A stretch of DNA of 64,000 nucleotides, from assembly GCA_013298895.1 (NCBI GenBank), contig JAAFJM010000005.1, positions 106,229 through 170,228 of the forward strand, given 5' to 3'. The translations under genes were made by a program, and so were the position numbers. Source of the DNA: Bacteroidota bacterium (lineage in GTDB: Bacteria; Bacteroidota; Bacteroidia; UKL13-3). Positions 14,994 to 60,051 of this stretch are shown here, piece by piece. Below the pieces are notes generated by a model that did no database searches, was not told where the DNA came from, and was given only the letters and a program-made list of their open reading frames with translations. Position 1 is the stretch's first letter. Each line of letters begins with the position of its first letter.

Positions 14994-15019
14994 TATGACA
15001 TATTTAGTTTAGTGAAATT

Positions 15020-40461: not shown

Positions 40462-40745
40462 CTAATAAGTAGCCTTGCTTAAATGGTAGTTTGAATAAAT
40501 GGTGTTTAAATCGTTAAAAGTTTCTTGAAAAGTAAATTGGGCATTTTTGTCTAATGATCTTCCCTCGCCACGTCTGTCATATACAATTACATAAAAGCCG
40601 TTTTCGGTAAGCTTTTTTGATGTTGTACCTTCAAAATTAGCACAATTATAACCAGGACCACCATGCAAAAATATAAGTGGTTTATCTTTGGCATTGCCAA
40701 ATGTTCTAATTAAAAGGGTATATCCAACTGAAGCAACGTTTGTTA
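40462..40745 (-). pseudogene. Truncated alpha/beta-hydrolase (proline-iminopeptidase-like) gene fragment
   Basis: The minus strand encodes ...FGNAKDKPLIFLHGGPG...VIVYDRRGEGRS..., the N-terminal ~95 aa of an alpha/beta hydrolase. It has no in-frame Met upstream (a stop precedes it) and no nucleophile-elbow region downstream. Confidence 0.5.
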
Positions 40746-41264
40746 CAATAAAAATGAAGCAATAAAAAGTAATTTCATAATATTTTTTTGTTTGTTTAAA
40801 CTTATAGATACAAAGCAGAGCAAAATGTTACAGGTTAAAACATTTGTTTTGTAAACTGTCTGATTAAAACAAAGAGCAAATAAAAATATAACTTTCCATT
40901 CCAAATAAGAGCATGAGAAATAGGAAAAACAACAACCATATAACTATTTAAACATTAAATAATAACACTAAATTTACTAGTAATGTTGTAGTTTTTTTAT
41001 AAATAAAAAATATTGAGCGAAAATATAAAAGGGGGTAAAAAAGAATCAAAATAGTGTACAAGTAGAAAAGTTACATCATCAAAAAAAACAAAAAAAAGTT
41101 TGAAAATAATTTTTTTTACTATATTGGTTGTGGTAAATTTTACCATAATTAAATTTAAAATCAATATATTGATCAACAGTTTCGATTAAAAAAATGCATA
41201 AAAAACTATTACGTACATAAAATAAAAAAAATCAATGCTAATGGATAAACTAAACAGATACAAA

Positions 41265-44200: not shown

Positions 44201-44378
44201 TGGAACAAAACTTGGATTTAGAGGAACCTACCGCACACTAAATAGATACTCCAATAGATATTCACCAACTACGAAAATGAATAACTTAGGTGAAATTGTT
44301 CCAGACCCAAATGCTATTGGATTCCCTGATGGAAATGAGTGGGAATTTAGAACCTATATCCAAATAAACATTAACTAA
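41265..44378 (+). CDS. Secreted clan GH-A glycoside hydrolase domain (GH5-like) fused to a ~600-aa putative outer-membrane beta-barrel
   Basis: Signal peptide (MKKMLLQCLLFLTPVLAFAQ). The N-terminal ~400 aa carry the LFLLGNENNY acid/base and ILLTEFG nucleophile Glu motifs of TIM-barrel clan GH-A hydrolases. The C-terminal ~600 aa are Gly/Tyr/Asn/Trp-rich with alternating hydrophobic residues, typical of OM beta-barrels. The ORF track starts 10 codons earlier at 41235. Confidence 0.55.
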   Translation: MKKMLLQCLLFLTPVLAFAQKDKVLVIKSGNGFKLTVNGKETFINGMNWDYFPIGTNYNYSLWKQSDDVIIAALDIEMPLLKNMGVNVIRQYTGVPAKWVKYIYENYGIYTMLNHSFGRYGLTVKGKWEPNTDYADPNVREILLNETKEMVREYKETPGVLLFLLGNENNYGLFWRGAETENIPFADRKSTKAAYDMYKLFNDATKALKELDSNHPISICNGDLLFSDIIAKECKDVDILGINCYRGSSFTNLYDKVKKDLNMPILLTEFGSDAYNTLANKEDQEYQAKVLLSNWKEIYENASGMGKNDNSLGGFTFQFSDGWWKTGQTINLDEHDATASWSNGGYKNDFVLGENNMNEEWFGICAKGQTNERGTYELYPRAAYYALQSVHQFNPYTANPESINILFKGISVADATLRARGDKAVLESKDKGKLYLSNLQANFNTYQTGGSLISTPTTANPASTTFPNEQGFDHMESFNIGVTARPAPNMRANVQFNVLGNVATRPIDEIFYENRGRNLTVQTPNGPQQINSNNRLQLYRASYTWDAQEFKVTGFYRTGHYHWGYEGDFFGLYREANYGPNIDIYNGNAPFGFEVEAKKMLKGLKIAFGPELWWGANPAFLAKYSRKLIGLDVTGIFHEDLVQRSDLQSSFAVPVPKTRRLTLAIGKKTEKFTFDVGGIWGGQPLVGRGFQMIQDNIVYVDKIKSTDNFGGKVKLTYSIGSIRWYGLASYMGLVANGGVDQTKTFTGWVLKDIGSGNMYNVLSGFTYNIGKFQIAPNFLYQKPLVGPIGPQFAAPARPRNILDDPFSVRGNRETLGGELLLTFDPTPATWMYEWDNDRMEDAQFAMSTGFVYRHLPTIQDAAIGILGNGRTTFVFPGSAPAQDLWEANTRMVSKINPQFGIIGNIYFGNGQANGSDTRTINRYGIDIRTIYKKMKLITMVKIDDWGPFDYHRDFNQTFPLQLIGDWSVEIGKPDWFMLPGTKLGFRGTYRTLNRYSNRYSPTTKMNNLGEIVPDPNAIGFPDGNEWEFRTYIQININ

Positions 44379-44408
44379 TGAAATTCAATACTTATAAAAA
44401 AACAAAAA

Positions 44409-45818
44409 ATGAATATTTTAAGTAAAAAAATTATTTCTATAAGTCTCTTATCTACATTATTTGTTGTTCAATTTGGATGTAAAAGAGATTTATCTAACGA
44501 TGCAGTATTGCCTACGTTTTCAAAAAATGGAGGGATTTTTACCGATAATTTTATTGGTTTAGGCTCTAATTTTTATTTCCCATTTGCTGATGCAAAACCG
44601 GATGTGTTTTCCGTAGATATGAAAGAGGGTTTCGAAAGCAATGCTTCTATAAGAATAGACGTACCCAACAATACTGACCCAACAGGGACTTATGCAGGGG
44701 CTATTTTTAGGGTAGATGGAGCAGGTAGAAATCTTTCAGGTTTTGATGCACTTACATTTTATGTTAAAGCATCTACAGGTGTAAAACTAGGGGATGTAGG
44801 GTTTGGAATAGACTACCTTGGTGACAAATACAAAGTTTCAATACAAAATGTAAATGTAGGTACTGGGTGGTCCAAAGTAATTATTCCTATTCCTGATGCA
44901 TCTAAACTTACAAACGAAAGAGGTGTGTTTTGGTTTGCTGCAGGAACTCAAGGAACAAATGGCTCAGGCTATGCCCTTTGGTTTGATGAAATAAAATTTG
45001 AAAAACTAGGAACTGTAGGCAAACCAACTTCCACTATTTTGGATGGTCAAACAAGCACTATTAAATCATTTAATGGCTCTACTATAAATATAACTGGACT
45101 AGACCATATTTATAACCTTACAAATGGTCAAGATGTTAAAGTAATTTCAACTGCCGCTTATTATAATTTTACCAGCTCTAATCCAACCGTGGCTACTGTT
45201 AATGATATAGGAGTTATAACCGTTTTAGCAACGGGAAATGCAGAAATAACAGCTAGCGTAAATGGTGTTCCAGCCAAAGGGAAAGTTATAATTGAGTCGA
45301 AAGGAGATTTTGTAGGTGCACCGGCTCCAACAAAGCCTCAAAATGACGTAAAATCTATTTTTAGTGACGCTTATACCGATGCAACAACAAGTAATTTCAC
45401 CCCTGGTTTTGGAGGTTCTACAACAATAACCGATATCTTAACAACAAGTACTGGAAAGATTGCTCAGTATAGTAACAATAATTACACGGGAATAATGTTC
45501 ACTGAAAACCCTTTAGACGGAACAACAATGGGATTTTTACATATAGATGCTTACGTTGAGAACGCCTCTACCACAATTGGAATTCAAATTAGAGATATAG
45601 GTGCAAATAAAACCATTAATACCGATGTGAACACAGGAAATCCCATAGGAGATGATAAAGATTTAAGAACTACTTTATCAGGCTTTCAAGCGGGAGTTTG
45701 GAAGTCTTTTGATATACCTTTAAATGGTGCAATCCAAAACCAAAAAGGTAACTTAGGTGCACTTATTGTTACTGGTGGTCCTAATTTTATTCTCGACAAT
45801 ATTTATTTCTATAAATAA
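44409..45818 (+). CDS. Surface lipoprotein with Big_2 (bacterial Ig-like) domain; putative glycan-binding SusE/F-like protein
   Basis: Lipobox (VVQFGCKRD). ISTAAYYNFTSSNPTVATVNDIGVITVLATGNAEITASV is a Big_2 signature. Confidence 0.5.
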   Translation: MNILSKKIISISLLSTLFVVQFGCKRDLSNDAVLPTFSKNGGIFTDNFIGLGSNFYFPFADAKPDVFSVDMKEGFESNASIRIDVPNNTDPTGTYAGAIFRVDGAGRNLSGFDALTFYVKASTGVKLGDVGFGIDYLGDKYKVSIQNVNVGTGWSKVIIPIPDASKLTNERGVFWFAAGTQGTNGSGYALWFDEIKFEKLGTVGKPTSTILDGQTSTIKSFNGSTINITGLDHIYNLTNGQDVKVISTAAYYNFTSSNPTVATVNDIGVITVLATGNAEITASVNGVPAKGKVIIESKGDFVGAPAPTKPQNDVKSIFSDAYTDATTSNFTPGFGGSTTITDILTTSTGKIAQYSNNNYTGIMFTENPLDGTTMGFLHIDAYVENASTTIGIQIRDIGANKTINTDVNTGNPIGDDKDLRTTLSGFQAGVWKSFDIPLNGAIQNQKGNLGALIVTGGPNFILDNIYFYK

Positions 45819-45853
45819 AATAAAGCAAGTTCAATCCTTTAAAAAATGTATTA

Positions 45854-46666
45854 ATGAAGTATATAAATAAAATAATGATAGTGGCTATGCTATTTGTAAT
45901 GCTAGCAGGTTGTGAAGTAGAACCAAAACAAACCCTACCAAATAGAAGCTTCGAGTTGGTTTGGAGTGACGAGTTTGAAGGTGATTCGGGCGTTGCCCCC
46001 AATGCAACTAAATGGACATACGATTTAGGTACTGGTCAAAATGGTTGGGGGAATAACGAACTTCAATCCTATACGAATAAAGCACAAAATGTATCTTTAG
46101 ATGGAAAAGGAAATCTGTTGATAACAGCAATAAAAAATGGTTCCAATTATACCTCTGCACGTATCAAAACGAAAGGAATATTTTCTCAGAAATATGGCAA
46201 ATTTGAGGCACGTATTAAAACACCAACAGGAGCTGGCATGTGGCCTGCGTTTTGGATGTTGGGTGATAATATTGATAGTGTAAGTTGGCCAAAATGTGGT
46301 GAGATTGATATCATGGAACAAAAAGGAAAGTTTTCGAATATTACTTACGGTACTATTCATGGGCCTGGTTACTTTGGTGGCGAAGCTATAAGCTCCCCTT
46401 ATTCAATACCCAATAGCCGATTCGATAATGATTTTTTCATTTACGCTGTAGAATGGAATGAAAGCCAGATTGATTTTTTTGTGAATGGTTATCTTTATAG
46501 AAGAATCACACCTGCTGAAACGAAAGGACAGTGGGTATTCAAACAATCATTTTTTATGATCCTTAATTTAGCAGTAGGTGGAAACTTTGGAGGACCTCCA
46601 AATGAGAATACACCATTTCCAGGAACTATGGCTGTGGATTATGTCAGAGTTTATAAGTATAAATAA
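45854..46666 (+). CDS. GH16 endo-beta-1,3-glucanase (laminarinase) lipoprotein
   Basis: Lipobox (MLAGCEV). ELVWSDEFEG and the GH16 catalytic motif EIDIME (ExDxxE). ARIKTKG, WPAFWMLG. Confidence 0.85.
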   Translation: MKYINKIMIVAMLFVMLAGCEVEPKQTLPNRSFELVWSDEFEGDSGVAPNATKWTYDLGTGQNGWGNNELQSYTNKAQNVSLDGKGNLLITAIKNGSNYTSARIKTKGIFSQKYGKFEARIKTPTGAGMWPAFWMLGDNIDSVSWPKCGEIDIMEQKGKFSNITYGTIHGPGYFGGEAISSPYSIPNSRFDNDFFIYAVEWNESQIDFFVNGYLYRRITPAETKGQWVFKQSFFMILNLAVGGNFGGPPNENTPFPGTMAVDYVRVYKYK

Positions 46667-46780
46667 CTCTGCAACATTGTTATTTGTTATATTTAAATTA
46701 GCTGATAACACTTTTGAAATATAATGTTTTGAAAAAATTAGATTCTTAAAATTTATAAAAAGGTAAATAAATACCAATTA

Positions 46781-49700
46781 ATGACAGGTCAAAATCAAGA
46801 AAAACAAGAGTCTTTAGTAGCAATAAAGCGATTGAAAATTGAAGGTGAAAACTTCTTTTGCATTTCAAACAATAATGAAATGCGTCCATTTTTTATGAGT
46901 ATAGTAAGCGATTCTCATCATTGGATGTTTATATCCAGTAATGGAGGGATTACTGCTGGACGTAAGAGTGCTGAGTACGCATTATTTCCTTATTACACTG
47001 TTGATAAAATTACTGAATCATACGACATTACTGGTTCTAAGTCAATATTTCAAGTAATTCAAAATGACGAAATCCATGTATGGGAACCATTTTCTGAACG
47101 AAATGAAAGCGAATTTCACACTGCTAGAAACCTATATAAAAATGCTATTGGTAATAAAATCATTTTTGAAGAAATAAATCATACGCTTGGGCTTACATTT
47201 AGATATGAATGGAACTCTAGCAATATGTATGGGTTTGTACGTAAATCTACTATAGAAAATATAGGAGATAAAGAACTTAAAATTAATTTGCTAGATGGCA
47301 TACAAAATATAATGCCAGATGGTGTAAGTAGTGATTTACAAAACGCTGCTAGTAATCTTGTTGATGCGTACAAGAGAAATGAATTAGATGCGGGTTCAGG
47401 GATGGGGATATTTGCCCTAAGTGCAATTATAGTAGATAAAGCTGAACCTAGCGAAGCACTTAAAGCCAACGTTGCTTGGTCTCTTGGACTTGATAATCCA
47501 AAATATTTAGTGTCTTCTTTGCAACTTAATGCTTTTAGAAAGGGATTAGGCATAGTTCAAGAAGAAGATGTGAAGGCAGAAAAAGGATCTTATTTCATTA
47601 ATAAAGAAATTACATTATCACCTGGGAATAAAAAAAATTGGTTAATTATAGCTGATGTAAACCAAAGCCAGGCCGATGTTGTTAGATTAATTAATGAGAT
47701 TAAAACCAATAAAGAAATTAGAAAACTGGTAGAAGACGACATAGAACTTGGCTCTCAACGATTAATTGAACTTAATGCATCATCTGATGGCATCCAATTG
47801 TCGGATGATGTTTACAGGGATACACGACATTTTTCCAATACCCTTTTCAATATAATGCGAGGCGGCATTTTCGATTTCAATTACCAAATCGAAAAGTGGG
47901 ATTTAGTTAAACACTTCATTACGGCTAACAAAACGGTTTATGAAAAGCACCATAAGTTGTTTGATGGCTTGGCTGAAACTTTCACAGTTTTTGAATTAGA
48001 AAAATTATCATCTGAAACTGACGACAACCATTTTAAGAGACTATGTGCAGAATACATGCCTTTAAAATTCAGCAGAAGGCATGGTGATCCAAGTAGGCCT
48101 TGGAATAAATTTTCAATCAACACCCGAAGCGCGGTTGACCACTCAAAGGTATTGGATTACGAAGGCAACTGGCGAGATATTTTTCAAAACTGGGAAGCAC
48201 TAGCAATCTCTTACCCTGCCTTTACCAAGAGTATGGTTCACAAGTTTTTAAATGCAACTACTTTTGAAGGATATAATCCTTATAGGTTAACTAAAAGTGG
48301 TTTTGATTGGGAAACAGTAGAGCATGATAATCCTTGGTCGTATATTGGTTATTGGGGAGATCATCAGATTATATATTTGTTAAAATTATTGGAAATTAAT
48401 GAGAAGTATTTTCCTGGTCAATTAAGTAGCCAATTTAATCAAGACCTTTTTGTATATGCCAATGTTCCTTACAAAATAAAGAGTTATAATGAAATTGTGA
48501 ACAACGCTAAAGATACCATAGAGTTTGAGGAGGCGTTGGATGCAAAAATCAGAAAAAAGCGTGACTTAATAGGTTCTGACGCTACACTTTTAGAAGATCA
48601 AAAAGGAAAAATTTATTCCGTAAATTTTATAGAGAAAATATTAGCAACTGTTTTGTCTAAACTCTCCAATTTTATTCCTGGTGGTGGAATTTGGATGAAT
48701 ACCCAAAGGCCGGAATGGAATGATGCAAACAATGCACTTGTAGGGAATGGTGTTTCCGTTGTAACCCTCTGCTACCTGCGAAGGTTCCTTGTGTTTTTTG
48801 ATAAGCTTATTGAGCAAACAGCGGATGAAGATCGCGTTGAAGTATCGAATGAGTTAATCATCTTCTTTAAAAAATTACATACAACTTTTGATGAACATGC
48901 AGCATTGTTAAAAAATGACATCAATGATGCTCAACGCAAAGAAATACTTGATAGTTTAGGTCAAGCAGGAAGTGATTACAGAGAACATATTTACAAACAA
49001 TCATTTTGGGGAGAGAAAAGAACAATTTCATACCGTAGGCTTAAAGCATTTGCTAAAGTAAGTTTACAGTTTATAGAACATACAATCAACGCCAATAAAC
49101 GTGATGATGAGATGTATCATTCCTACAATTTGATGAGCATTCGAGACAATAATGAAATTTCTATTTCTTACCTCAATGAAATGCTCGAAGGACAAGTTGC
49201 TGTGCTGAGTTCGGGTTACCTATCTCCAAAGGATGCCTTAAAACTATTGGATAGTATGAAGAAGAGTGCGCTTTTCCGTCCTGATCAGTACAGCTATTTG
49301 CTTTACCCAAATAAAATACTTCCTAAGTTTTTAGAGAAGAACAATATCCCAAAAGAAGCCATAAAACAATCAAAGCTTATCAATGCAATGTTAGCTGATG
49401 GCGATAAATCGCTTGTAGAGCAAGACATAAAAGGAGATTACCATTTTAACGGTAACTTTAAAAATGCTGCCGATTTAAGTGATGCCATTTCAAAATTGGA
49501 GAATTCAAAGTATGGTCAGTTCATTCAAAGTGAAAAGAAAGCTCTTTTAGATACTTTTGAATTAGTTTTTGACCATAAATCATTTACTGGCCGTTCTGGT
49601 ACATTTTATGGCTACGAAGGTCTAGGCTCTATTTACTGGCACATGGTTTCTAAACTGCAATTGGCTGTGCAAGAAGTATGTTTGCAAGCAATAGAAAAAG

Positions 49701-50236
49701 AAGAAAGTGCCGAGGTAATTGGAAAATTATTGGAGCATTATTACGAAATAAATGCAGGCGTTGGTGTGCACAAATCGCCATCACTTTACGGTGCATTTCC
49801 TACCGATCCATACTCTCACACTCCGGCTAACAGAGGAGCGCAACAACCAGGCATGACAGGCCAGGTAAAAGAAGACATTCTTAGTAGATTTGGCGAATTG
49901 GGTGTTTTTGTTTCCAATGGTCGTTTGTATTTTAATCCATGTTTATTAAGAAAAAACGAGTTTACAACAGAAGACCGTTTGTTTAATTACGTTACCATAA
50001 ATAAGGAACATAAAACTTTTGCACCTGCCCTTGGCTCACTTTGTTTTACTATTTGCCAAGTTCCAGTCATTTACTGTTTATCAAATGAAAATCGTCTTGA
50101 AATTGAAAAGAAAGATGGTAATTTAAGTAAACATGATACCCTGTACCTTGATGCAGAAACAAGCACACAAATCTTTAATAGAACAGGTAAAGTAGCTAAA
50201 ATTACTGTATATGTCAAAGAATCAATATTGAAGTAA
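46781..50236 (+). CDS. Large cytoplasmic protein; candidate beta-1,3-glucan phosphorylase (GH149/GH161/GH94-clan-like)
   Basis: 1151 aa, no signal peptide. Embedded among GH16/GH17/GH30 genes. Size and context match the GH149-type phosphorylases described in flavobacterial laminarin loci. I cannot confirm catalytic motifs by eye. Confidence 0.4.
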   Translation: MTGQNQEKQESLVAIKRLKIEGENFFCISNNNEMRPFFMSIVSDSHHWMFISSNGGITAGRKSAEYALFPYYTVDKITESYDITGSKSIFQVIQNDEIHVWEPFSERNESEFHTARNLYKNAIGNKIIFEEINHTLGLTFRYEWNSSNMYGFVRKSTIENIGDKELKINLLDGIQNIMPDGVSSDLQNAASNLVDAYKRNELDAGSGMGIFALSAIIVDKAEPSEALKANVAWSLGLDNPKYLVSSLQLNAFRKGLGIVQEEDVKAEKGSYFINKEITLSPGNKKNWLIIADVNQSQADVVRLINEIKTNKEIRKLVEDDIELGSQRLIELNASSDGIQLSDDVYRDTRHFSNTLFNIMRGGIFDFNYQIEKWDLVKHFITANKTVYEKHHKLFDGLAETFTVFELEKLSSETDDNHFKRLCAEYMPLKFSRRHGDPSRPWNKFSINTRSAVDHSKVLDYEGNWRDIFQNWEALAISYPAFTKSMVHKFLNATTFEGYNPYRLTKSGFDWETVEHDNPWSYIGYWGDHQIIYLLKLLEINEKYFPGQLSSQFNQDLFVYANVPYKIKSYNEIVNNAKDTIEFEEALDAKIRKKRDLIGSDATLLEDQKGKIYSVNFIEKILATVLSKLSNFIPGGGIWMNTQRPEWNDANNALVGNGVSVVTLCYLRRFLVFFDKLIEQTADEDRVEVSNELIIFFKKLHTTFDEHAALLKNDINDAQRKEILDSLGQAGSDYREHIYKQSFWGEKRTISYRRLKAFAKVSLQFIEHTINANKRDDEMYHSYNLMSIRDNNEISISYLNEMLEGQVAVLSSGYLSPKDALKLLDSMKKSALFRPDQYSYLLYPNKILPKFLEKNNIPKEAIKQSKLINAMLADGDKSLVEQDIKGDYHFNGNFKNAADLSDAISKLENSKYGQFIQSEKKALLDTFELVFDHKSFTGRSGTFYGYEGLGSIYWHMVSKLQLAVQEVCLQAIEKEESAEVIGKLLEHYYEINAGVGVHKSPSLYGAFPTDPYSHTPANRGAQQPGMTGQVKEDILSRFGELGVFVSNGRLYFNPCLLRKNEFTTEDRLFNYVTINKEHKTFAPALGSLCFTICQVPVIYCLSNENRLEIEKKDGNLSKHDTLYLDAETSTQIFNRTGKVAKITVYVKESILK

Positions 50237-50238
50237 TC

Positions 50239-51522
50239 ATGCGAAAAGTTAGTATAACATATTATTTTTTAGTGCTTTTAACTGTTATGCTAACTTCGTG
50301 TGGCTCTCAAAACGCTACCAAAGAAAACTCAAAACAATTGGAGAAAACAAAAACGGCCGCTCAAATTTTAGGTGATTCTAACTACCAAGCAATATGCTAT
50401 GGAGGTTATCGCACAAATACGCGAGATTCACAGCCCTCTGTTTCTCAAATTAAAGAAGACGTGAAAATACTAAGTGCAATGGGCATAAAATTGCTCCGCA
50501 CTTATAATACAAAGTATGACGAGGTAAGAAGTTTGATGCAGGCAATAACTGAGTTGCGCTCAGAGAACCCAGATTTTGAAATGTATGTAATGCTTGGTGC
50601 TTGGATAGATTGCGAAAATGCTTGGACAGAGAAGACACCTAATCATAACAAAGAAAACATAAAAGCGAATACCGAGGAGATTGAAAGAGCTGTTGACCTA
50701 GCAAACAAATATCCTGAAATTATAAAAATAATTGCTGTGGGTAATGAAGCCATGGTAAAATGGGCAGCCAGCTATTATGTAGAACCACATATTATTTTAA
50801 AATGGATTACTTACTTACAAAACTTAAAAAAAGAAAATAGTTTACCTCAAGATTTATGGATTACCTCTTCCGATAACTTCGCTTCTTGGGGTGGTGGCGA
50901 CTCCTCTTACCATGTCAGTGATTTAAAGAAAATATATGAAGCAGTAGATTATGTTTCTATTCATACATATCCAATGCACGACACCCATTACAATCCTGTT
51001 TTTTGGGGATTAACTGCGCAGGAAGAAGCTTTAACGCCAGAAGAAAAAATAGACACTTTGATGTTGCGTTCCTTAAATTATGCAAAAAAGCAATACCTTG
51101 GCGTATCTAATTATATGAAATCTATTGGAATAGATAAACCCATTCATATTGGAGAAACTGGTTGGGCTTCAAGCTCTGATGGTTTGTATGGAAATAATGG
51201 TTCCAAAGCATGTGATGAATATAAATCTGGAAAATATTATAAATTGATGCGTGAATGGACCAATCAAGAAAAAATTACTTGTTTTTATTTTGAGGCCTTT
51301 GACGAGCAATGGAAAGATGCCAACAACCTAAAAGGTTCAGAAAATCATTTTGGATTATTTACCATTGAGGGTAAAGCCAAATATGCACTATGGGAAAAAG
51401 TAGATCAAGGTGTATTTAAGCACTTAAAAAGAGATGGCAATTCAATTGAAAAAACTTACAATGGTAAAGAAGAAGATTTGCTAAAGATGGTTGAATTACC
51501 TAAAATTAAAAATATTAAATAA
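50239..51522 (+). CDS. GH17-family beta-1,3-glucanase/transglycosylase lipoprotein
   Basis: Lipobox (MLTSCGS). IAVGNEAM is the acid/base region and IHIGETGWASS the nucleophile region (GH17 signature x-E-[ST]-G-W-[PA]-S). Confidence 0.7.
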   Translation: MRKVSITYYFLVLLTVMLTSCGSQNATKENSKQLEKTKTAAQILGDSNYQAICYGGYRTNTRDSQPSVSQIKEDVKILSAMGIKLLRTYNTKYDEVRSLMQAITELRSENPDFEMYVMLGAWIDCENAWTEKTPNHNKENIKANTEEIERAVDLANKYPEIIKIIAVGNEAMVKWAASYYVEPHIILKWITYLQNLKKENSLPQDLWITSSDNFASWGGGDSSYHVSDLKKIYEAVDYVSIHTYPMHDTHYNPVFWGLTAQEEALTPEEKIDTLMLRSLNYAKKQYLGVSNYMKSIGIDKPIHIGETGWASSSDGLYGNNGSKACDEYKSGKYYKLMREWTNQEKITCFYFEAFDEQWKDANNLKGSENHFGLFTIEGKAKYALWEKVDQGVFKHLKRDGNSIEKTYNGKEEDLLKMVELPKIKNIK

Positions 51523-53030
51523 TGAAGAACATGAAACAGCATTTATTTTCCGTAAAAACTTTTCTATTGGTGATGACTTGTGCTGTTTTTGTTCAATGTA
51601 ATAATATTAGAAAAATGACTATTGATGTATATGAAACCTCAGAAAACGGAAATTCACTTACGCTTATAAAAGATTTTAAACCCGCTGACGAATCTTTAAC
51701 ATTAAAGGTAAATCCAGCCGAGCAATTTCAAAAAATTACAGGATTTGGAGGGTCATTTACTGAGGCATCGGCCCATTTGTTAAATAAATTGAGCCTTGCC
51801 AACAGAAAAAAAATATTAGACGCTTATTTTAGTCAAGAAGGCGCAAATTATTCTCTAACCAGAACACATATTGCATCGTGCGACTTTTCGTTAAGCAACT
51901 ACACCTATGCCAAAGTTGAAAACGATTTGGAAATGAAACATTTTACAATTGAAGATGATAAAATGGATTTAATTCCGATGATTTTAGATGCCAAGAAAAC
52001 ATCAAAAGAAGGATTTAAAATTATAGCCTCTCCATGGACTTGCCCACCGTGGATGAAAGACAATAAAAAATTTGTTGGAGGGAAATTATTACCCGAGTTT
52101 AATGATGCTTTTGCTTTGTATTTTTCAAAATATTTATCGGCTTATAAAAAAGAAGGAATTGATATTTGGGGCGTAACAGTAATTAATGAGCCACATGGCA
52201 ACGGAAATAACTGGGAAAGCACCTTGTTTTCACCAAAAGAAATGACTGATTTTGTTCAAAACCATCTTGGGCCAAAATTAGAAAAAGACAATTGGGGTAA
52301 AGTAAACATTTTTGGTTACGACCAAAACCGAGCTGGCTTAAAGGAATGGGTTGATGAAATGTACAAAGATGAAAAATCATCAAAGTATTATGCTGGTGTT
52401 GCCATTCACTGGTACGAAAGCACGTATAATTATTTTCCAGATGCACTTCAATATGCGCACAAAAAAGCACCTAATAAATATTTAATAGAAACCGAAGGTT
52501 GTGTAGATTCAGAAGTTCCAAAGTGGCAGGATGATAAATGGTATTGGCAAAAAGAAGCCACCGATTGGGGTTGGGACTGGGCAAGCGAAAAGGACCGTCA
52601 TTTACACCCAAAATATGCACCTGTAAATAGGTATGCAACAGACATAATTGGCTGTTTGAATAATTATGTAGATGGTTGGGTAGATTGGAACATGGTTTTA
52701 AACAAACAAGGAGGGCCTAATTGGTTTAAAAATTGGTGTGTAGCTCCTGTAATTGTAGATGAAGAAAAGGACGAAGTGTATTTTACACCATTGTACTTTA
52801 TAATGGCACATTTTAGTAAATTTATGCGACCAGGAGCTGTTAAAATTGGCTGTGAAATAAATCACAAAGAAGTAATGACAACGGCTGTTCAAAACCCTGA
52901 TGGAAGCATTGTGATTGCATTATTTAACCCTACGGATAAAAAATACAATATTGCAATCAACATCAATAAGGAAATAAAAACAATTGCCATAGATTCAAAA
53001 GCATTACAAACAATAGTAATTAAAAATTAA
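51522..53030 (+). CDS. GH30-family beta-glucosidase/beta-1,6-glucanase
   Basis: Signal peptide. ITGFGGSFTEASA, VTVINEPHG (catalytic acid/base NEP) and the glucosylceramidase-like architecture. Confidence 0.75.
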   Translation: MKNMKQHLFSVKTFLLVMTCAVFVQCNNIRKMTIDVYETSENGNSLTLIKDFKPADESLTLKVNPAEQFQKITGFGGSFTEASAHLLNKLSLANRKKILDAYFSQEGANYSLTRTHIASCDFSLSNYTYAKVENDLEMKHFTIEDDKMDLIPMILDAKKTSKEGFKIIASPWTCPPWMKDNKKFVGGKLLPEFNDAFALYFSKYLSAYKKEGIDIWGVTVINEPHGNGNNWESTLFSPKEMTDFVQNHLGPKLEKDNWGKVNIFGYDQNRAGLKEWVDEMYKDEKSSKYYAGVAIHWYESTYNYFPDALQYAHKKAPNKYLIETEGCVDSEVPKWQDDKWYWQKEATDWGWDWASEKDRHLHPKYAPVNRYATDIIGCLNNYVDGWVDWNMVLNKQGGPNWFKNWCVAPVIVDEEKDEVYFTPLYFIMAHFSKFMRPGAVKIGCEINHKEVMTTAVQNPDGSIVIALFNPTDKKYNIAININKEIKTIAIDSKALQTIVIKN

Positions 53031-53041
53031 TAACATAGATT

Positions 53042-55396
53042 ATGTCCAATCAAATTTCATCACAAAAAGTGCCCATGGGGCAAAAAATCGCCTTCGGATT
53101 GGGAATGCTAGCCAACCAAATGTTCCCAGCTATGATTGGTATTTTTACCGTTGTATTGGTAGAAAAACTTGGATTTAGTGGATTGTTACTTGGATTAACC
53201 TATTTTATTCCTAAGTTTTATGATGCTTTATTTGATCTTATAATGGGATATGTAAGCGATAATACTAAATCTAAATGGGGTAGAAGAAGACAATATGTAT
53301 TGGCAGGTGCTATTATATTAGGGATTTCATTTTCATTAATGTGGCAATTGTATGCTGAAAATGGTGTTACTTACAATTTTTGGTACTTTTTAGTTGTGTC
53401 GCTAGTTTTTTATTCAGGGCTTACCATATTTAGTATTCCTTATGTAGCAATGGGATACGAAATGAGTGATGATTTTCATGAACGAACAAATATCATGGCT
53501 ACTTCCCAACTTATTGGTCAATTAGCTTGGGTTGTTGCTCCTTGGTTTTGGGTAATAATGGCTGATGAATCTTTGTTTCCATCAACCGATGTAGCAGTTA
53601 GAACTTTATCGGTGTATGTTGCAATTGGATGTAGCATTTTAGCAGCCATTCCAGCTTTCTTTATTCCAAGTAAATCAACATTGAACGAAAATTATAGCCC
53701 AATTGATTTTAAAGGAATACTTGGCAGTTTTGGAGAAATCAAAGAAGGATTAAAAGCTTCGGCAGAAATTAAACCATTCAGAAAAATTTGTATTGCAACC
53801 TTCTTAATTTTTAATGCTTTTCAAACCACAGCAGGTTTTTCTTATTTTATCATCAAATATTATTTGTTTAAGGGAAATGAAGACGGTTTTGGATTATGGC
53901 CAACATTATTTGGATGTGTGGGAGCTATGATTACTACAGTTATTGTAATACCTATTGTTGCTAGAATGTCTAAAATAATGGGAAAAAAGAAGGCATTTTT
54001 AGTTTCTCAAAGCATTTCAGTATTTGGTTATATTTTATTATGGATACTTTTTGTTCCGGGGAAACCTTATCTTTTTCTTTTTGCATTACCTTTTTTTGCA
54101 TTTGGTATTGGAAGTTTGTTTACCCTAATGATGTCTATGACTTCTGATGTAATAGATATTGACGAATTAAATACTGGAAAAAGAAGAGAAGGAAGTTTGG
54201 GGGCTATCTATTGGTGGATGGTAAAATTTGGAACTGCCGTAGCGGGATTATTAAGTGGTTTAATTCTAACTTTTGTTAGTTTTAAATCTAATGCACCTAC
54301 CCAAACAGATGAAACTATGTTTTGGTTAAGAATCTTCTTTGTTGGAATTCCAATATTAGGAACATTGGCTGCTATTTGGGCAATGAAAGATTATGATATT
54401 GATGAAGTAAAAGCATTAGAAGTAAGAGATCTTTTAGAAAAAAGGAAAAAACCTTCAGTAAATAAGCAATCATCCAGTTATCTTACTGGCAAATTACTTT
54501 CTTTATCCAATAATGGATCTTTAATCAATAAGTTGGTTGGAACAGATTTAAGTTCAAAAAGCGAAGAAGAAATAGAAACTCTATTTTCTAAGCAATTTAA
54601 TACTGGTTTAAATGGATTATGTTTTAGTCCTTATATTGAAGGGCAAAAAGTGGGCGATATTTTATCGGCCGAACAAATAAGAAGAAGATTAGAAATTATT
54701 GCACCGCATACAAAATGGATTAGAACTTTTTCATGCACAGAAGGAAATGAATTGATACCAGAAATTGCGCACCAAAAAAGCATTAAAACAGTTGTTGGAG
54801 CATGGATAAGCAATGATAGAGTGAGGAATGAAAAAGAAATAAATGAATTGATAAAACTTGCAAATGCTGGCTTGGTTGATATTGCAGCGGTAGGTAATGA
54901 AGTTTTGCATAGGGAAGAGATTTCAGAGGATGAATTAATTGAATACATTAAAAGAGTTAAAAACGCCATTCCAAATCATATTGAAGTAGGTTATGTTGAC
55001 GCCTATTATCAATTTATTGAAAGGCCTATACTTGTTGATGCTTGCGACTTGATTTTATGTAATTTCTATCCTTTCTGGGAAGGTGCTAACATTGATTATT
55101 CTGCATCTTATCTTTCAAATATGCTTGAGGTTACCAAAGCAGTAAGTAAGAATAAAAGAATAATTATTACAGAAACAGGATGGCCTAGTTTTGGAGAAAC
55201 AGTAGAAAATGCTGTACCATCAAAAATAAATGCGATGAAATATTTTGTTGTTTCGCAAGAATGGGCAAAAAGCAATAAAATAGAATTATTCCATTTTTCA
55301 TCATTCGATGAATCATGGAAAGTTATTCAAGAAGGTAAATTGGGAACATCTTGGGGATTATGGGATAAAAACGAAAAATTCAAGTTCAAAAAATAA
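53042..55396 (+). CDS. Fusion protein: N-terminal MFS/GPH-family sugar transporter (~460 aa) plus C-terminal GH17 domain (~300 aa)
   Basis: The N-terminal half has about 12 hydrophobic helices and a GPH-like DxxxGxRR region (DNTKSKWGRRRQ). The C-terminal half has AAVGNEVLH and IIITETGWPSFGE, a match to the GH17 signature, and is ~45% identical to the next gene. Confidence 0.7.
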   Translation: MSNQISSQKVPMGQKIAFGLGMLANQMFPAMIGIFTVVLVEKLGFSGLLLGLTYFIPKFYDALFDLIMGYVSDNTKSKWGRRRQYVLAGAIILGISFSLMWQLYAENGVTYNFWYFLVVSLVFYSGLTIFSIPYVAMGYEMSDDFHERTNIMATSQLIGQLAWVVAPWFWVIMADESLFPSTDVAVRTLSVYVAIGCSILAAIPAFFIPSKSTLNENYSPIDFKGILGSFGEIKEGLKASAEIKPFRKICIATFLIFNAFQTTAGFSYFIIKYYLFKGNEDGFGLWPTLFGCVGAMITTVIVIPIVARMSKIMGKKKAFLVSQSISVFGYILLWILFVPGKPYLFLFALPFFAFGIGSLFTLMMSMTSDVIDIDELNTGKRREGSLGAIYWWMVKFGTAVAGLLSGLILTFVSFKSNAPTQTDETMFWLRIFFVGIPILGTLAAIWAMKDYDIDEVKALEVRDLLEKRKKPSVNKQSSSYLTGKLLSLSNNGSLINKLVGTDLSSKSEEEIETLFSKQFNTGLNGLCFSPYIEGQKVGDILSAEQIRRRLEIIAPHTKWIRTFSCTEGNELIPEIAHQKSIKTVVGAWISNDRVRNEKEINELIKLANAGLVDIAAVGNEVLHREEISEDELIEYIKRVKNAIPNHIEVGYVDAYYQFIERPILVDACDLILCNFYPFWEGANIDYSASYLSNMLEVTKAVSKNKRIIITETGWPSFGETVENAVPSKINAMKYFVVSQEWAKSNKIELFHFSSFDESWKVIQEGKLGTSWGLWDKNEKFKFKK

Positions 55397-55407
55397 ATAT
55401 ACATATC

Positions 55408-56355
55408 ATGTCATATAGAGAAGGTCATTTATTTAATCAAAAGAATCAGGAAAACTATTCTAATTCACACACTGAAAAACATGCTAATTCATATCACGAA
55501 ACTATTCATGTTAATTATTCTGAACTTTCAAATGATGATTTAAAAAGTTTATGGCATAAAACACTTCTGGGTGGAATGCATGGTATTTGTTTTAGTATTT
55601 ATGAAGATGGACAAAAGCCAGGAGCAATCATTACAGAAGCCCAAGTAGAAAGGCGCATAAAAATATTACAACCTTATGCCAAATGGGTGCGCTCGTTCTC
55701 TTGTATTGAAGGAAACGAACACGTGCCAAGAATGGCAAAAAAGTACGGAATGAAAACCCTTGTGGGGGCATGGCTTGGAGATGATTTAGAATTGAACGAA
55801 AGAGAAATTGAAGGCTTAATTGCGATGGCAAATGAAGGCTTGGTTGATGTGGCTGCTGTGGGTAATGAAGTGATGTATAGAAAAGATTTAACAGAAGAAC
55901 AATTATTAGCATATATACAAAGAGTAAAAGAAGCTATACCTCATATTCCAGTTGGTTATGTTGATGCCTATTACGAATTTTCTCACCGACCAAGAATTAC
56001 AGAAATTTGCGATGTGATTTTAACAAACTGTTACCCCTATTGGGAAGGATGTCCTATTGAATATTCCTTTGAACATATGAAAAGCATGTTTGAGTCCGCC
56101 AAAAATGCTAGTCAAGGTAAACGTGTAATTGTTACAGAAACTGGTTGGCCAAGCGAAGGTGGAGCATTTAAAGCATCAGTTGCTAGTAATGAAAATGCAA
56201 TGCGTTATTTTATTGATTGCCAGAATTGGTGTAATATAAATGGTATTGAGAGTTTTTATTTTGCTTCATTTGATGAATCTTGGAAAACTGGTCCAGAAGG
56301 CGATGTTGGAGCGTATTGGGGACTTTGGGATAAACATGAACAATTGAAATTTTAA
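55408..56355 (+). CDS. GH17-family protein without signal peptide (cytoplasmic paralogue)
   Basis: AAVGNEVMYR, VIVTETGWPSEGG. No N-terminal signal sequence. Paralogous to the C-terminal domain of the preceding fusion. Confidence 0.7.
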   Translation: MSYREGHLFNQKNQENYSNSHTEKHANSYHETIHVNYSELSNDDLKSLWHKTLLGGMHGICFSIYEDGQKPGAIITEAQVERRIKILQPYAKWVRSFSCIEGNEHVPRMAKKYGMKTLVGAWLGDDLELNEREIEGLIAMANEGLVDVAAVGNEVMYRKDLTEEQLLAYIQRVKEAIPHIPVGYVDAYYEFSHRPRITEICDVILTNCYPYWEGCPIEYSFEHMKSMFESAKNASQGKRVIVTETGWPSEGGAFKASVASNENAMRYFIDCQNWCNINGIESFYFASFDESWKTGPEGDVGAYWGLWDKHEQLKF

Positions 56356-57302
56356 TGGCGGATTTTTTTAATCAATTTAATTTACCATTTGCCAAAGCCA
56401 TGTGTTATTCTGGCTTTCGAAATGGACAACAACCAGGTGGAATTGTGCCATCTTACGAAGAAATAAAAGAAGATTTACTGCTTTTAGCACCTCATTGTAA
56501 TTACTTGCGATTGTATGATTGTGATGAGCACGCGTTAACCGTAATCAAGGTTATTCTCGAAGAAAAATTAGACTTCAAATTAATGCTTGGGGCGTACATC
56601 GTAGCCGAATTGAATAACCACGGCTGCCCATGGGGTGGTGGTATTTATGAGGAAAGGCAATTGGAAGAAAATAGGAAAATGAACGACCAAAAAATTCAAA
56701 GCCTAATCGATTGGTCTAATCAGTATACTGAAATTATTTGTTGTGTATCACTTGGCAATGAAGCTTGTGTTGATTGGACGGATCATTTTGTACCTGTTGA
56801 CCGTGTAATAGAGTTTGCAAAAAGAGTGAAGAAAAGTATTGAACAACCAATTACCTTCTGCGAGAATTATGTTCCCTGGTTAAATTATCTCGCACCACTT
56901 GTAGAGGTAATAGATTTCATTTCAATACACACCTATCCAGTTTGGGAATACAAACACATAAACGAATCTGTTGATTATACCATTGCTAATTATCAAATGG
57001 TAGCCAATCAATATCCTCAAATTCCTGTGGTAATTACGGAAGCGGGCTGGGCTACCAATTCGCATGGCAGAGGAATTCATGTTGAACATGTAAATGAAGA
57101 GAATCAGAAAATTTACTATGAAGACTTAATGGATTGGTCTATTAAAAACAATGTATTGACCTTCTTTTTCGAAGCATTTGACGAACAATGGAAAGGGTCA
57201 CCAGATCCATTGGAACCTGAAAAGCATTGGGGAGTGTTTAAAGCTGACAGGACGCCTAAATTGGTTTTTGCAGAATCCGCTAAAGTGTTAAAATCAACAT
57301 AA
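56355..57302 (+). CDS. Divergent GH17-like protein without signal peptide
   Basis: SLGNEACVDW, VVITEAGWATNSHG. The start overlaps the upstream stop (ATGA-type overlap at 56355). Confidence 0.6.
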   Translation: MADFFNQFNLPFAKAMCYSGFRNGQQPGGIVPSYEEIKEDLLLLAPHCNYLRLYDCDEHALTVIKVILEEKLDFKLMLGAYIVAELNNHGCPWGGGIYEERQLEENRKMNDQKIQSLIDWSNQYTEIICCVSLGNEACVDWTDHFVPVDRVIEFAKRVKKSIEQPITFCENYVPWLNYLAPLVEVIDFISIHTYPVWEYKHINESVDYTIANYQMVANQYPQIPVVITEAGWATNSHGRGIHVEHVNEENQKIYYEDLMDWSIKNNVLTFFFEAFDEQWKGSPDPLEPEKHWGVFKADRTPKLVFAESAKVLKST

Positions 57303-57380
57303 GCCTCCATCACTTTTGGGTGATGGCACGCTATTTAAACAGATTAACTTGTATTGGTAAAACTAAATACTTCTTATATC

Positions 57381-58106
57381 TTAAAGTTCAAAAGAAAAGC
57401 CCTTTTCTTCTAGTACCTTGTATCTTTTTTCATCAAATTGAAATAGTTTGGCAGGACGGTGAGCAACATTTTCTTTAAACTCATTCAAAGGTTGTAAAAT
57501 ATTCATTTCAAGAATTTTTTTCCTGAAATTAGATTTGTCAAACTTATATCCTAGTAGGGCTTCGTATAACAATTGTAATTCCAGTAGTGTAAATTTAGTT
57601 GGCAACAATTCAAATCCTGTAGGCTTATGTCGAACCTCATGTTTTAATGTTTCGATGCCTTTTTGAAGAATAGTATAATGATCAAAAGCCAATTCAGGCA
57701 ACTCATTTATACTAAACCATTCTGCAGATTTTGCCCAAGAAGAAGCAATGGGATTATAGCTCAAACTATTTACTACTGAAAAATAGCCTACCGTAACCAC
57801 TCGATCCAATGGATGTCTATCTATACTTCCAAAAGCGAAAAACTGCTTCATGTAAATGTTTTTTAATCCAGTGAGCTTTTCCAACACGTTATTAGCAGCA
57901 TCACATAAGTTTTGTTCAGGCTCTACAAGATCTCCAATTAAGGCCCAATGATCTTTAAATGGCTCCAAACTTCTTTGCACCAGCAATACCTTTATCTCAC
58001 CTTCTTGGTAACCAAAAATCACACAATCAACAGATAAACCAAAAATAAAGTACTCCCTGATTGGAATATTATAGTCGGATATATAGTAAGCATTTGTTGA
58101 TTTCAT
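57381..58106 (-). CDS. NrtR/AraR-like Nudix-domain transcriptional regulator
   Basis: Nudix-like fold (GLSVDCVIFGY...VLLVQR...WALIGDLVE, degenerate Nudix box) followed by a C-terminal winged-helix (FTLLELQLLYEALLG), as in Bacteroides AraR/NrtR. I take the start at MKSTNAYY (58106) rather than the upstream ATG, which would add a hydrophobic extension. Confidence 0.5.
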   Translation of the reverse strand: MKSTNAYYISDYNIPIREYFIFGLSVDCVIFGYQEGEIKVLLVQRSLEPFKDHWALIGDLVEPEQNLCDAANNVLEKLTGLKNIYMKQFFAFGSIDRHPLDRVVTVGYFSVVNSLSYNPIASSWAKSAEWFSINELPELAFDHYTILQKGIETLKHEVRHKPTGFELLPTKFTLLELQLLYEALLGYKFDKSNFRKKILEMNILQPLNEFKENVAHRPAKLFQFDEKRYKVLEEKGFSFEL

Positions 58107-58215
58107 GTTGCAAAATAACAGAAGAATTGTAAGTAAAATAAATTTACTTATAGTATTTTTTACTTTAACTTTTTTTGCTTTACTTGCGTTTACAAATATA
58201 TTAATATAATTACAT

Positions 58216-60051
58216 ATGAAAAAAATCATTACTTTAAGTTTATCCTTACTTGTTTCAAGCATAGGATTTTCTCAAAACGCCCCAATTAATTTTGAAACGG
58301 GTGGTCAAGGTGCGAGTTGGACTTGGACAACTTTTGAGAATGGCACGAATCCAACATTAGAAATTGTAAACAATCCTAGTTCAGTTGCTCCAAACACTTC
58401 TAGTAAAGTAGCAAAATTTACTGCACTAAAAGGAGGTAATCCGTGGGCTGGATGTGAGTCTGCGAAAGGTTCAGATATTGGTACGTTTTCTTTATCTGCA
58501 TCAAATGCCAGAGTGAAAATTTTGGTTTACAAAACTAGAATTAGCGATGTTGGAATCAAGTTCGTTAACAGCACCAATGGCTCTACAGGCGAAATCAAAG
58601 TTCCTAATACTAAAATCAACGAGTGGGAAGAGTTAACTTTTGACTTTTCTTCAAAAATTGGTGTCCCTGAATCAAATAATATTACTCAAATTGTAATATT
58701 CCCTGATTTCATTCCCGGTGGTGATCCTAGAGCTGATACTACTATTTCTTATTTCGACAATATTACATTTTCTGCCGGCACTACTTTAGCTGAACCAACT
58801 GCGCCTGCCATGGCTCCAACCAAACTAGCCGCTGATGTTATTTCATTGTTTAGCAACGCTTATACCAATGTAACAGTTGATACTTGGAGAACAGGTTGGT
58901 CTAACGGTACACTTACAGAAATGAAAATTGGCACTGATGATGTTAAAAAATACTCTGGATTGGATTTTGTTGGTATTGAAATGATTGCAAAACCAATTAA
59001 TATCAGTGCTATGGATTTGTTTGAATTTGACATTTGGACGCCAAATTCAACTAATTTTAGATTCAAATTAGTTGATGCTGGAGCCAATGGAACTATTGGA
59101 GGTGGGGATGATAAAGAGCACGAACTTACTGTTACTCCTACATTAGAAGGATGGAATCATATAGCGGTGCCAATATCGAATTTTACTGGCTTAACAACTA
59201 AGTCAAATATTGCACAACTTATTTTTGGAAGTGCGCCTGTAGGTACATCTATAGTTTATTTGGATAATATTATGTTTAGTAAAGCCCCTGTATTGGCTGA
59301 ACCAACTGTTGCAGCAAAAACTCCTACAAAATTAGCTAAAGACGTTATTTCTTTGTTTAGCAATGCTTACACCAATGTAACAGTTGATACATGGAGAACT
59401 TCTTGGTCTAATGGAACACTTACAGAAACGAAAATTGGAGCTGATGATGTTAAAAAATACACTGGATTAGATTTTGTTGGGATTGAAACGATTGCAAAAC
59501 AAATTGATTTAACTGGTATGGATTCATTTGAATTTGATATGTGGACGCCAAATTCTACTGCTTTTAGGTTCAAATTAGTTGATGCAGGCGCTGATGGTGT
59601 TATTGGTGGTGGTAATGATAAAGAACATGAAACAACCATTACACCGACTTTAAACGGTTGGAATCACGTAGCAGTGTCAATATCGAGCATGACAGGCCTT
59701 ACAACCAAAAAGAATATTGCACAACTTATTTTTGCAAGTGCGCCTGTAGGGACTTCAATTGTTTACATTGATAATGTTTTATTTAGCAAAAAAACTTCAG
59801 TAGGTGTTTCTTCTATTGCGCAAGAAACAATTGGTGTTTTCCCAAATCCTGCAAGCAATAATTTAAATATCACCACTAAAAATAATATTCAAGATATTGC
59901 CATTTACAATGCATTGGGTCAGGTTGTATTAACAACTTCACCAAATGCTAATACTGTAAATGTTGATATTACTAGTTTACCAAACGGTTTTTATACTGTT
60001 AAGGCTAGCATAAATGGTGTTGATACCTTCAAGAAAATTATAAAAGAATAA
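58216..60051 (+). CDS. T9SS type A cargo protein with three CBM-like beta-sandwich domains (two near-identical tandem copies)
   Basis: Signal peptide. The C-terminus VFPNPASNNLNITT...IYNALGQVV...GFYTVKA is Por_Secre_tail. Internal 169-aa repeats are ~85% identical. Confidence 0.75.
   Translation: MKKIITLSLSLLVSSIGFSQNAPINFETGGQGASWTWTTFENGTNPTLEIVNNPSSVAPNTSSKVAKFTALKGGNPWAGCESAKGSDIGTFSLSASNARVKILVYKTRISDVGIKFVNSTNGSTGEIKVPNTKINEWEELTFDFSSKIGVPESNNITQIVIFPDFIPGGDPRADTTISYFDNITFSAGTTLAEPTAPAMAPTKLAADVISLFSNAYTNVTVDTWRTGWSNGTLTEMKIGTDDVKKYSGLDFVGIEMIAKPINISAMDLFEFDIWTPNSTNFRFKLVDAGANGTIGGGDDKEHELTVTPTLEGWNHIAVPISNFTGLTTKSNIAQLIFGSAPVGTSIVYLDNIMFSKAPVLAEPTVAAKTPTKLAKDVISLFSNAYTNVTVDTWRTSWSNGTLTETKIGADDVKKYTGLDFVGIETIAKQIDLTGMDSFEFDMWTPNSTAFRFKLVDAGADGVIGGGNDKEHETTITPTLNGWNHVAVSISSMTGLTTKKNIAQLIFASAPVGTSIVYIDNVLFSKKTSVGVSSIAQETIGVFPNPASNNLNITTKNNIQDIAIYNALGQVVLTTSPNANTVNVDITSLPNGFYTVKASINGVDTFKKIIKE
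58789..59802 (+). repeat. Tandem 507-bp intragenic duplication (2 copies, ~85% nt identity)
   Basis: GCTGAACCAACTG... at 58789 recurs at 59296, and the sequences stay collinear for ~500 bp. Confidence 0.8.

Follow-up and report, generated by a model that had tools for sequence, protein, structure and literature searches.

A 64,000-nucleotide stretch of a Bacteroidota bacterium (GenBank assembly GCA_013298895.1, contig JAAFJM010000005.1, positions 106,229 to 170,228 of the forward strand; the whole stretch is called the window) was analysed. From its open reading frames (ORFs) and their Pfam and NCBIfam matches, a co-directional + strand gene cluster was found to span 41.2-57.3 kb. It encodes a permease fused to a glycoside hydrolase family 17 (GH17) domain, followed by two free GH17 proteins that we designate c1 and c2. 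The cluster is an ordinary, if well-preserved, freshwater representative of a system that is already published. Judged jointly with the pathway proposed below, the region probably forms the downstream half of a laminarin (beta-1,3/1,6-glucan) utilisation cluster of the canonical Bacteroidota type, from a freshwater, Flavobacteriales-like host. The GH17 domain of the fusion is predicted, from sequence and models, to face the cytoplasm. c2 represents a conserved, uncharacterised clade of predicted cytoplasmic GH17 proteins, by sequence the sister of the periplasmic endo-laminarinase GH17A. Large amounts of carbon pass through the turnover of laminarin and chrysolaminarin, for which this cluster is among the main bacterial routes.

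GH17 proteins of the cluster

Four GH17 proteins are encoded within 50239-57302: a lipoprotein, the permease fusion and two 315-aa proteins without signal peptides. TM denotes a transmembrane helix.

50239..51522, + strand: GH17A lipoprotein, FbGH17A orthologue (PDB 6FCG, E=4.6e-171 over residues 9-424; lipobox LTSC)
53042..55396, + strand: whole fusion, 784 aa (PF13347 MFS_2 at residues 18-455 and a C-terminal PF00332 GH17 domain)
53042..54379, + strand: fusion residues 1-446, 12-helix GPH/MFS_2 symporter domain (PF13347, 206.7 bits)
54380..54601, + strand: fusion residues 447-520, K/R-rich helix after TM12, variable linker and pre-barrel helix (alignment of 74 fusions)
54602..55396, + strand: fusion residues 521-784, FbGH17B-type GH17 catalytic domain (PF00332, 42.8 bits; RmBgt17A 4WTP, E=4.3e-29)
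55408..56355, + strand: c1, 315-aa free, predicted cytoplasmic GH17 of the MlGH17B / FORMB_24750 type (4WTP, E=1.3e-35)
56355..57302, + strand: c2, 315-aa free, predicted cytoplasmic GH17 of the clade sister to GH17A (6FCG, E=1.8e-22)

c1 starts 11 nt past the stop codon of the fusion, and the ATG of c2 overlaps the TAA stop codon of c1 (TAATG). All four copies pass the PF00332 gathering score of 28.2 bits (30.7, 42.8 for the fusion, 46.9 and 31.8 bits). An earlier reading of 53042-57302, made from the letters alone (the sequence-only reading), had counted four GH17 signatures in 7 kb; the four proteins are present, but the literal ETGWPS occurs just twice, in the fusion and c1, with GETGWAS in GH17A and TEAGWAT in c2. 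The ORFs of that reading (53042-55396, 55408-56355 and 56355-57302) were recovered exactly, and the secreted lipoprotein that it listed is GH17A, which lies outside the interval at 50239-51522. Its two free cytoplasmic GH17 proteins, one of them divergent, agree with the TEAGWAT of c2 and with the finding of no N-terminal hydrophobic segment in c1 or c2. Its starting point, an extracytoplasmic site of action as the norm for bacterial GH17 enzymes, was too general, given that MlGH17B is predicted to be cytoplasmic. The GH17 domains of NdvB are also cytoplasmic.

The catalytic acid/base Glu (GNE, at the end of beta-4) and the nucleophile Glu (E-[TA]-GW, at the end of beta-7) are present in all four copies and kept in essentially all of 252 aligned GH17 homologues. 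In the fused domain they are E620 (GNEVLHR) and E711 (TETGWPS), both invariant across fusions. c1 has GNEVMYR, with Tyr; YPYWEG, with Trp-Glu; and its nucleophile in TETGWPS. It is colinear with the fused domain at 51% identity, and PDB matches place both nearest to the fungal transferase RmBgt17A. c2 and the window GH17A are 28% identical.

A neighbour-joining tree was computed from simple distances between 79 representative GH17 domains, with 100 bootstraps. This phylogeny, which had been proposed as a check, resolved two deep lineages: GH17A with c2, and RmBgt17A with the fused domains and c1. Bootstrap values were 81 for c1 (monophyletic), 96 for c2, 87 for GH17A and 87 for GH17A plus c2. 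Because c1 and c2 sit in different deep lineages, they are not a pair of paralogues, as the two free copies had been described; c1 is sister to the fused domain and c2 goes with the GH17A lineage. N-terminal hydrophobic segments were found in 64 of 70 GH17A sequences and in none of the c1 and c2 homologues examined. c1 begins with an extension of ~35 residues (55408-55540), rich in His, Asn and Gln, ahead of a pre-barrel helix whose homologue in the fusion forms the end of the linker.

Conservation of the fusion and its junction

For the locus survey, one genome per species was scanned, yielding 80 loci in which ORFs were called and compared by BLAST with the window proteins. The fusion nearest to that of the window (97% amino-acid identity) belongs to a freshwater metagenome-assembled genome (MAG); other loci come from Flavobacterium, Chryseobacterium, Chitinophagaceae, Cyclobacteriaceae, marine Flavobacteriaceae and Balneolaceae. 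The order GH149-GH17A-GH30-MFS~GH17-c1 is kept in nearly all 80 loci, with the fusion in 76, c1 in ~72 and c2 in ~32 (~40%). Complete fusions from 74 species-level genomes (Bacteroidota, Balneolaceae) are single ORFs of 777-793 aa. The best 120 database matches to the window fusion, derived from NCBI, JGI, ENA and Logan assemblies, are 717-792 aa long and all carry PF13347 and PF00332. A search seeded with a marine fusion (Algibacter MAG) listed 120 more matches, all of them fused with both Pfam domains, from Polaribacter, Winogradskyella, Lacinutrix, Kordia, Cellulophaga, Dokdonia and others.

The junction at 54420-54600 had been singled out as the place where an indel might have created the fusion. 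In the window its reading frame is unbroken, with no stop codon or frameshift. Across the 74 fusions it consists of a conserved K/R-rich helix after TM12, a variable linker of ~45 residues and a conserved helix leading into barrel strand 1; the mean majority-residue frequency is 0.72 for residues 447-470 and 0.49 for residues 471-520, with small indels only. A local sequencing or assembly frameshift that joined two genes would fit the unfused MFS and GH17 genes of three surveyed loci (L064, L066 and L068) and of Muricauda. We nevertheless consider it hardly conceivable, since the 777-793-aa ORF is continuous in 74 species-level genomes, fused proteins make up the 240 listed clusters, the Formosa fusion protein has been seen in proteomes (PMC6246565), and the free GH17 of the three unfused loci falls within the c1 clade of the tree and not within the fused-domain lineage. 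The conservation of the fusion ORF over 74 genomes and 240 listed protein clusters thus rules out an assembly artefact. L064 (Winogradskyella) and L066 (Polaribacter) have the unfused form only. L068, a marine Flavobacteriaceae MAG, has an unfused MFS gene and a c1-type GH17 gene, directly followed by a fused MFS~GH17 gene and a second c1-type gene. These three loci would be helpful for dating the fusion or fission event.

Relation to described systems

A fusion with one adjacent free cytoplasmic GH17 protein is a published arrangement and is not new (PMC6246565, PMC11005184, PMC13188888), so the novelty implied by the sequence-only reading falls away and the window adds little on the transporter-glycosidase fusion as such. 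According to Unfried et al. 2018 (PMC6246565), FORMB_24740 of Formosa sp. Hel1_33_131 (FbGH17B, AOR29491.1) is a 12-TM MFS protein fused to GH17. Its GH17 domain was assayed as an exo-beta-1,3-glucosidase, the protein was detected in proteomes, and homologues were induced by laminarin as growth substrate. The supplementary tables list FORMB_24710 as GH149, 24720 as FbGH17A, 24730 as GH30, 24740 as the fusion and 24760 as an unrelated gene; FORMB_24750 is a GH17-family protein without a signal peptide, predicted to be cytoplasmic and induced by laminarin. The window fusion resembles FbGH17B in joining an N-terminal 12-TM MFS domain and a C-terminal GH17 domain in one ORF of ~785 aa, in its place after GH149-GH17A-GH30 and ahead of a free GH17 gene (the order of FORMB_24710-24750), and in the replacement of a transglycosylation Tyr (Met in FbGH17B, His in the window). 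It differs in coming from a freshwater lineage, marine fusions being ~58-61% identical to it. The Formosa strain was not among the best 120 matches to the Algibacter MAG query. The fusion is called common among marine Flavobacteriia in that source; freshwater Flavobacterium, Chitinophagaceae and relatives also carry the architecture in abundance, and it is not confined to the marine group.

c1 matches FORMB_24750 in position and sequence type. It also resembles MlGH17B (WIW39500.1) of Muricauda lutaonensis, a characterised beta-1,3-glucanosyltransglycosylase predicted to be cytoplasmic (PMC11005184): it is a free GH17 protein of ~300 aa without a signal peptide, directly follows an MFS gene and keeps the Tyr/Trp/Glu residues discussed below. 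The published identity of MlGH17B and FbGH17B (53%; PMC11005184) agrees with the 51-52% measured between c1 and the fused domains. Muricauda differs in that its MFS protein is unfused and is followed by a single cytoplasmic GH17, MlGH17B.

Topology of the fusion

The permease can be aligned over its full length with MelB (4M64/8T60; query residues 10-476 against 3-460) through all 12 helices. A simple hydropathy pass gave 11 segments, with TM1 and TM2 merged; the MelB alignment and the helices of an AlphaFold2 model resolve these to 12. In the model, 12 long helices and a helix in the central loop precede a barrel of eight strands. Among GPH family models, PF13347 scored far above threshold (206.7 bits), but TIGR00792 scored 152.9 against a cut-off of 231.35. 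Likeness to MelB-type GPH symporters (4M64, 7L16) extends to the GPH-type cytoplasmic 2-3 loop, DNTKSKWGRRR; similarity is low (E ~5e-11), and the presumed substrates in the window are beta-1,3-gluco-oligosaccharides. We know of no MelB with a catalytic domain. The termini of MFS proteins and MelB are cytoplasmic.

Lys and Arg residues were counted in alternate loops. In the window fusion 32 fall inside and 5 outside, and every one of the 74 fusions shows the bias (means 32.1 and 4.5). The first 30 residues past TM12 carry 8 Lys and Arg, and no hydrophobic segment follows TM12 in the window protein, where the maximum 19-residue hydropathy is 1.15. The 12-helix GPH/MFS permease with a C-terminal, cytoplasmic-facing GH17 domain described in the sequence-only reading is therefore borne out in silico, by the MelB alignment, the modelled helices and the charge bias. 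With the GH17 domain predicted in the cytoplasm, transport should precede cleavage. A periplasm-facing domain that makes glucose for the attached MFS domain to import would reverse this order; we rate it as improbable, because the helix number is even and MelB-like throughout, a K/R-rich tail directly follows TM12, the 32:5 positive-inside bias recurs in every fusion and the window protein has no 13th hydrophobic segment. The accessible text of PMC6246565 gives no explicit membrane orientation for the GH17 domain of FbGH17B, and the orientation argument is the point at which the reasoning of the sequence-only reading adds to what that text contains. A consistent cytoplasmic placement in silico would fix the order of transport, then hydrolysis, in pathway models.

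Residues associated with hydrolysis and transglycosylation

Transglycosylation has been tied to Tyr136, Trp191 and Glu192 of MlGH17B (Tyr102, Trp157 and Glu158 of RmBgt17A), and the hydrolase FbGH17B carries Met in place of that Tyr (PMC11005184). The Tyr lies three residues past the acid/base Glu, and this position was used as a marker. Tyr occupies it in 72 of 75 c1 sequences and in RmBgt17A. In the fused domains the Tyr is replaced by H, L, F or M; this holds for 74 of 75 loci and for all 239 additional proteins taken from the database (313/314). In the window, the fusion has His there (GNEVLHR) and c1 has Tyr (GNEVMYR). The window c1 has the Tyr, Trp and Glu of MlGH17B and RmBgt17A, and the fused domain lacks the Tyr. 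One residue thus parts the fused domain from its free sister across hundreds of sequences. RmBgt17A (4WTP), a beta-1,3-glucanosyltransferase of Rhizomucor miehei, is the nearest solved structure to both the fused domain (4e-29) and c1 (1e-35); it differs from them in being a fungal secreted enzyme at ~33-35% identity, and c1 holds the equivalents of its Tyr102, Trp157 and Glu158. Glucose release in vitro by the Formosa counterpart, together with the replaced Tyr, makes a hydrolase the most likely identity of the fused domain. The marker supports, and does not prove, a division of labour between a fused hydrolase and a c1 transglycosylase.

The c2 clade

Among the matches listed for c2 are more than 100 clusters, 298-319 aa long and 72-100% identical, with automated names only. 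Their motifs are near-invariant (TEAGWAT in 119 of 120 matches and GNEACV in 119 of 120; GNEACVDW in the window), and none of 152 c2 sequences has a hydrophobic N-terminus. Within-clade identity is 73%, the highest of the four GH17 classes. An AlphaFold2 model of c2 (pLDDT 85.7, pTM 0.87) is a TIM ((beta/alpha)8) barrel, for which the best Foldseek match was 6FCG (TMq 0.78), followed by RmBgt17A (4WTR/4WTP).

FbGH17A (6FCG), a periplasmic endo-beta-1,3-glucanase of which the window GH17A is the orthologue, is thus the nearest match of c2 in both sequence and fold, and the motifs GNEA-V-W and FEAFDEQWK are common to the two. c2 differs in lacking the N-terminal 49 residues (signal peptide), an insertion of ~24 residues and the C-terminal ~40 residues. 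It is not of the FbGH17A type, having no signal peptide or lipobox, falling short of ~420 aa with insertions and standing outside the GH17A clade. A literature search for characterised freshwater or c2-type GH17 enzymes found nothing specific.

The clade spans Flavobacteriales, Chitinophagaceae and Balneolaceae, and is missing from the Formosa model strain and many Flavobacterium species. A case for c2 as a duplicate that is redundant or in decay, lacking a role of its own, might be made from its absence from ~60% of related loci, that strain included. Near-invariant catalytic Glu motifs (119/120), 73% within-clade identity, a confidently modelled barrel and the breadth of its distribution speak against decay, which we find very improbable. 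It is conceivable, though we would still call it doubtful, that c2 represents a cytoplasmic GH17 subfamily with a new function, such as acting on imported laminari-oligosaccharides that are branched or longer, beside a fusion that imports and then cleaves. If so, the trio would comprise a tethered exo-hydrolase, a transglycosylase and an endo-type enzyme, forming with GH149 an intracellular beta-1,3-glucan processing line in which removal of sugar at the inner face pulls uptake, an order opposite to hydrolysis followed by uptake. The clade is widespread and conserved, has apparently never been assayed and would be a cheap target for enzymology. In Flavobacterium loci (L007-L015, L018-L026 and others, ~13300-15000) the place of c2 after c1 is taken by a GH16 protein of ~565 aa, and both proteins may serve one and the same step as alternatives.

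Gene cluster and proposed pathway

The other genes of the cluster, and the regulator that converges on it, are as follows.

41235..44378, + strand: 1047-aa protein, first gene of the cluster (weak GH2 TIM-barrel match, PF02836, E=7.8e-6)
44409..45818, + strand: 469-aa Big_2-containing protein (weak Pfam Big_2 match)
45854..46666, + strand: GH16 lipoprotein, putative endo-beta-1,3-glucanase (PF00722, E=1.1e-22; N-terminus MKYINKIMIVAMLFVMLAGC)
46781..50236, + strand: GH149 beta-1,3-glucan phosphorylase (NCBIfam NF058639 equivalog, 1758.7 bits against a cut-off of 1150)
51522..53030, + strand: GH30 protein with signal peptide (PF02055, E=7.3e-76; N-terminal hydrophobic segment)
57381..58262, - strand: Nudix/NrtR-AraR-type winged-helix regulator, convergent with c2 (PF21906, E=1.1e-24; PF19368; PF00293)

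Relatives of the 1047-aa GH2-like protein hold the same position in most related loci. The position of the 469-aa protein upstream of GH16 is conserved across related loci, and this protein is possibly a surface glycan-binding protein. Signal peptides with a lipobox-like Cys are found in GH16, GH17A and GH30, and the GH30 gene has the cluster position of FbGH30, the exo-beta-1,6-glucosidase of Formosa, as judged by gene order. GH149 has no N-terminal hydrophobic segment, so no signal peptide, and is predicted to be cytoplasmic; it is encoded beside the GH17 set.

We propose the following pathway, which as a whole we consider probably correct. By orthology to characterised enzymes, the GH16 lipoprotein, GH17A (FbGH17A type) and GH30 would cut and debranch the glucan outside the cytoplasm. 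The GPH/MelB-like domain of the fusion would take up short laminari-oligosaccharides, which the fused GH17 domain, hung from TM12 by a linker of ~75 residues, would meet at the cytoplasmic side after transport and hydrolyse. The translationally linked c1 is most likely a beta-1,3-glucanosyltransglycosylase/hydrolase of the MlGH17B type that would disproportionate imported oligosaccharides. c2, a compact endo-laminarinase relative without a signal peptide, might cut longer or branched ones, which is a guess. GH149 would then phosphorolyse the products to glucose-1-phosphate and glucose. Each activity, the transported substrate and any kinetic gain from tethering are inferred from the families, the order and conservation of the genes, the catalytic residues and the topology in silico shown above; the intracellular remodelling and the coupling of import to first cleavage, as put forward in the sequence-only reading, have the same standing. 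A MalQ/MalP-like scheme, in which a transglycosylase must lengthen oligosaccharides for the phosphorylase, was also considered. It is weakened because characterised GH149 enzymes already act on a degree of polymerisation of at least 2 and on glucose as acceptor.

The three cytoplasmic GH17 activities could instead be mainly anabolic or remodelling, building branched or longer beta-glucans (storage, osmoprotectant) from imports or from GT2 products. c1 retains the transglycosylation residues, and in Proteobacteria the synthesis of cyclic glucan by NdvB involves a GH17 domain. A possible storage role for the carbohydrates that MlGH17B makes is raised as speculation in PMC13188888. Against this, the genes share one co-directional cluster with the catabolic GH16, GH17A, GH30 and GH149 in the 80 loci, no GT2 gene was found in the cluster by ORF annotation of the window, and in Formosa the homologues are laminarin-induced and the fused domain of FbGH17B is a hydrolase in vitro (PMC6246565). 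An anabolic role is therefore unlikely.

Several points weigh against the catabolic pathway as proposed. The single-residue marker for hydrolase or transferase is a hypothesis from one paper and not an established rule. In the neighbour-joining tree on simple distances, the fused domains form a grade around c1 and not a clade. Orthology to FbGH17B, FORMB_24750 and MlGH17B rests on gene order, published identities and statements about motifs. The AlphaFold2 model of the fusion is of low confidence (pLDDT 64, pTM 0.46, from a shallow alignment of 81-97% identity), so it is silent on domain docking and was used for the helix count only. The wording of PMC6246565 pairs hydrolysis with product uptake and can be read as cleavage before transport. 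For c2, the assignment extends to its fold and catalytic residues and not to a function.

Regulation and flanking genes

The Nudix/NrtR-AraR-type protein (57381-58262, - strand) is a candidate regulator of the cluster. It is kept beside c2 in the freshwater clade of the window (L001-L006, L030, L033, L038, L049, L053, L070 and L077) and is unlike BguR, a membrane-spanning regulator of marine Bacteroidota that was reported recently, as far as the accessible part of that report describes it. Beside it, at 58216-60051, lies a 611-aa protein that ends in a type IX secretion system (T9SS) sorting domain and contains two internal repeats with ~30% identity to the 469-aa Big_2 protein; this neighbourhood is conserved in the closest relatives, and the annotated start overlaps the regulator gene. 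The 611-aa protein may be secreted and bind beta-glucan.

No SusC/SusD pair was found among the annotated window ORFs, and none lies ahead of the glucan cluster. Upstream are genes for a HipA_2 kinase (38871-39650) and a DUF3037 protein (39640-40023), and an AT-rich stretch of ~1.2 kb before 41234 contains no long ORF, RNA-family match or tRNA; Rfam and tRNA scans of the window gave no matches. A sigma-70 promoter and terminator scan of 40000-58400 gave fewer sites than shuffled controls, the model being unsuited to Bacteroidota and the result uninformative. Downstream of the cluster, a GH97 protein (alpha-glucosidase-type family) with a signal peptide is encoded at 60810-62924 and may be part of a neighbouring alpha-glucan locus. 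Far upstream, at 2195-4408 on the - strand, a 737-aa ORF has a Schlafen group-3-like helicase domain together with ResIII and ends in an S24 peptidase domain, an architecture that looks defence- or SOS-related.

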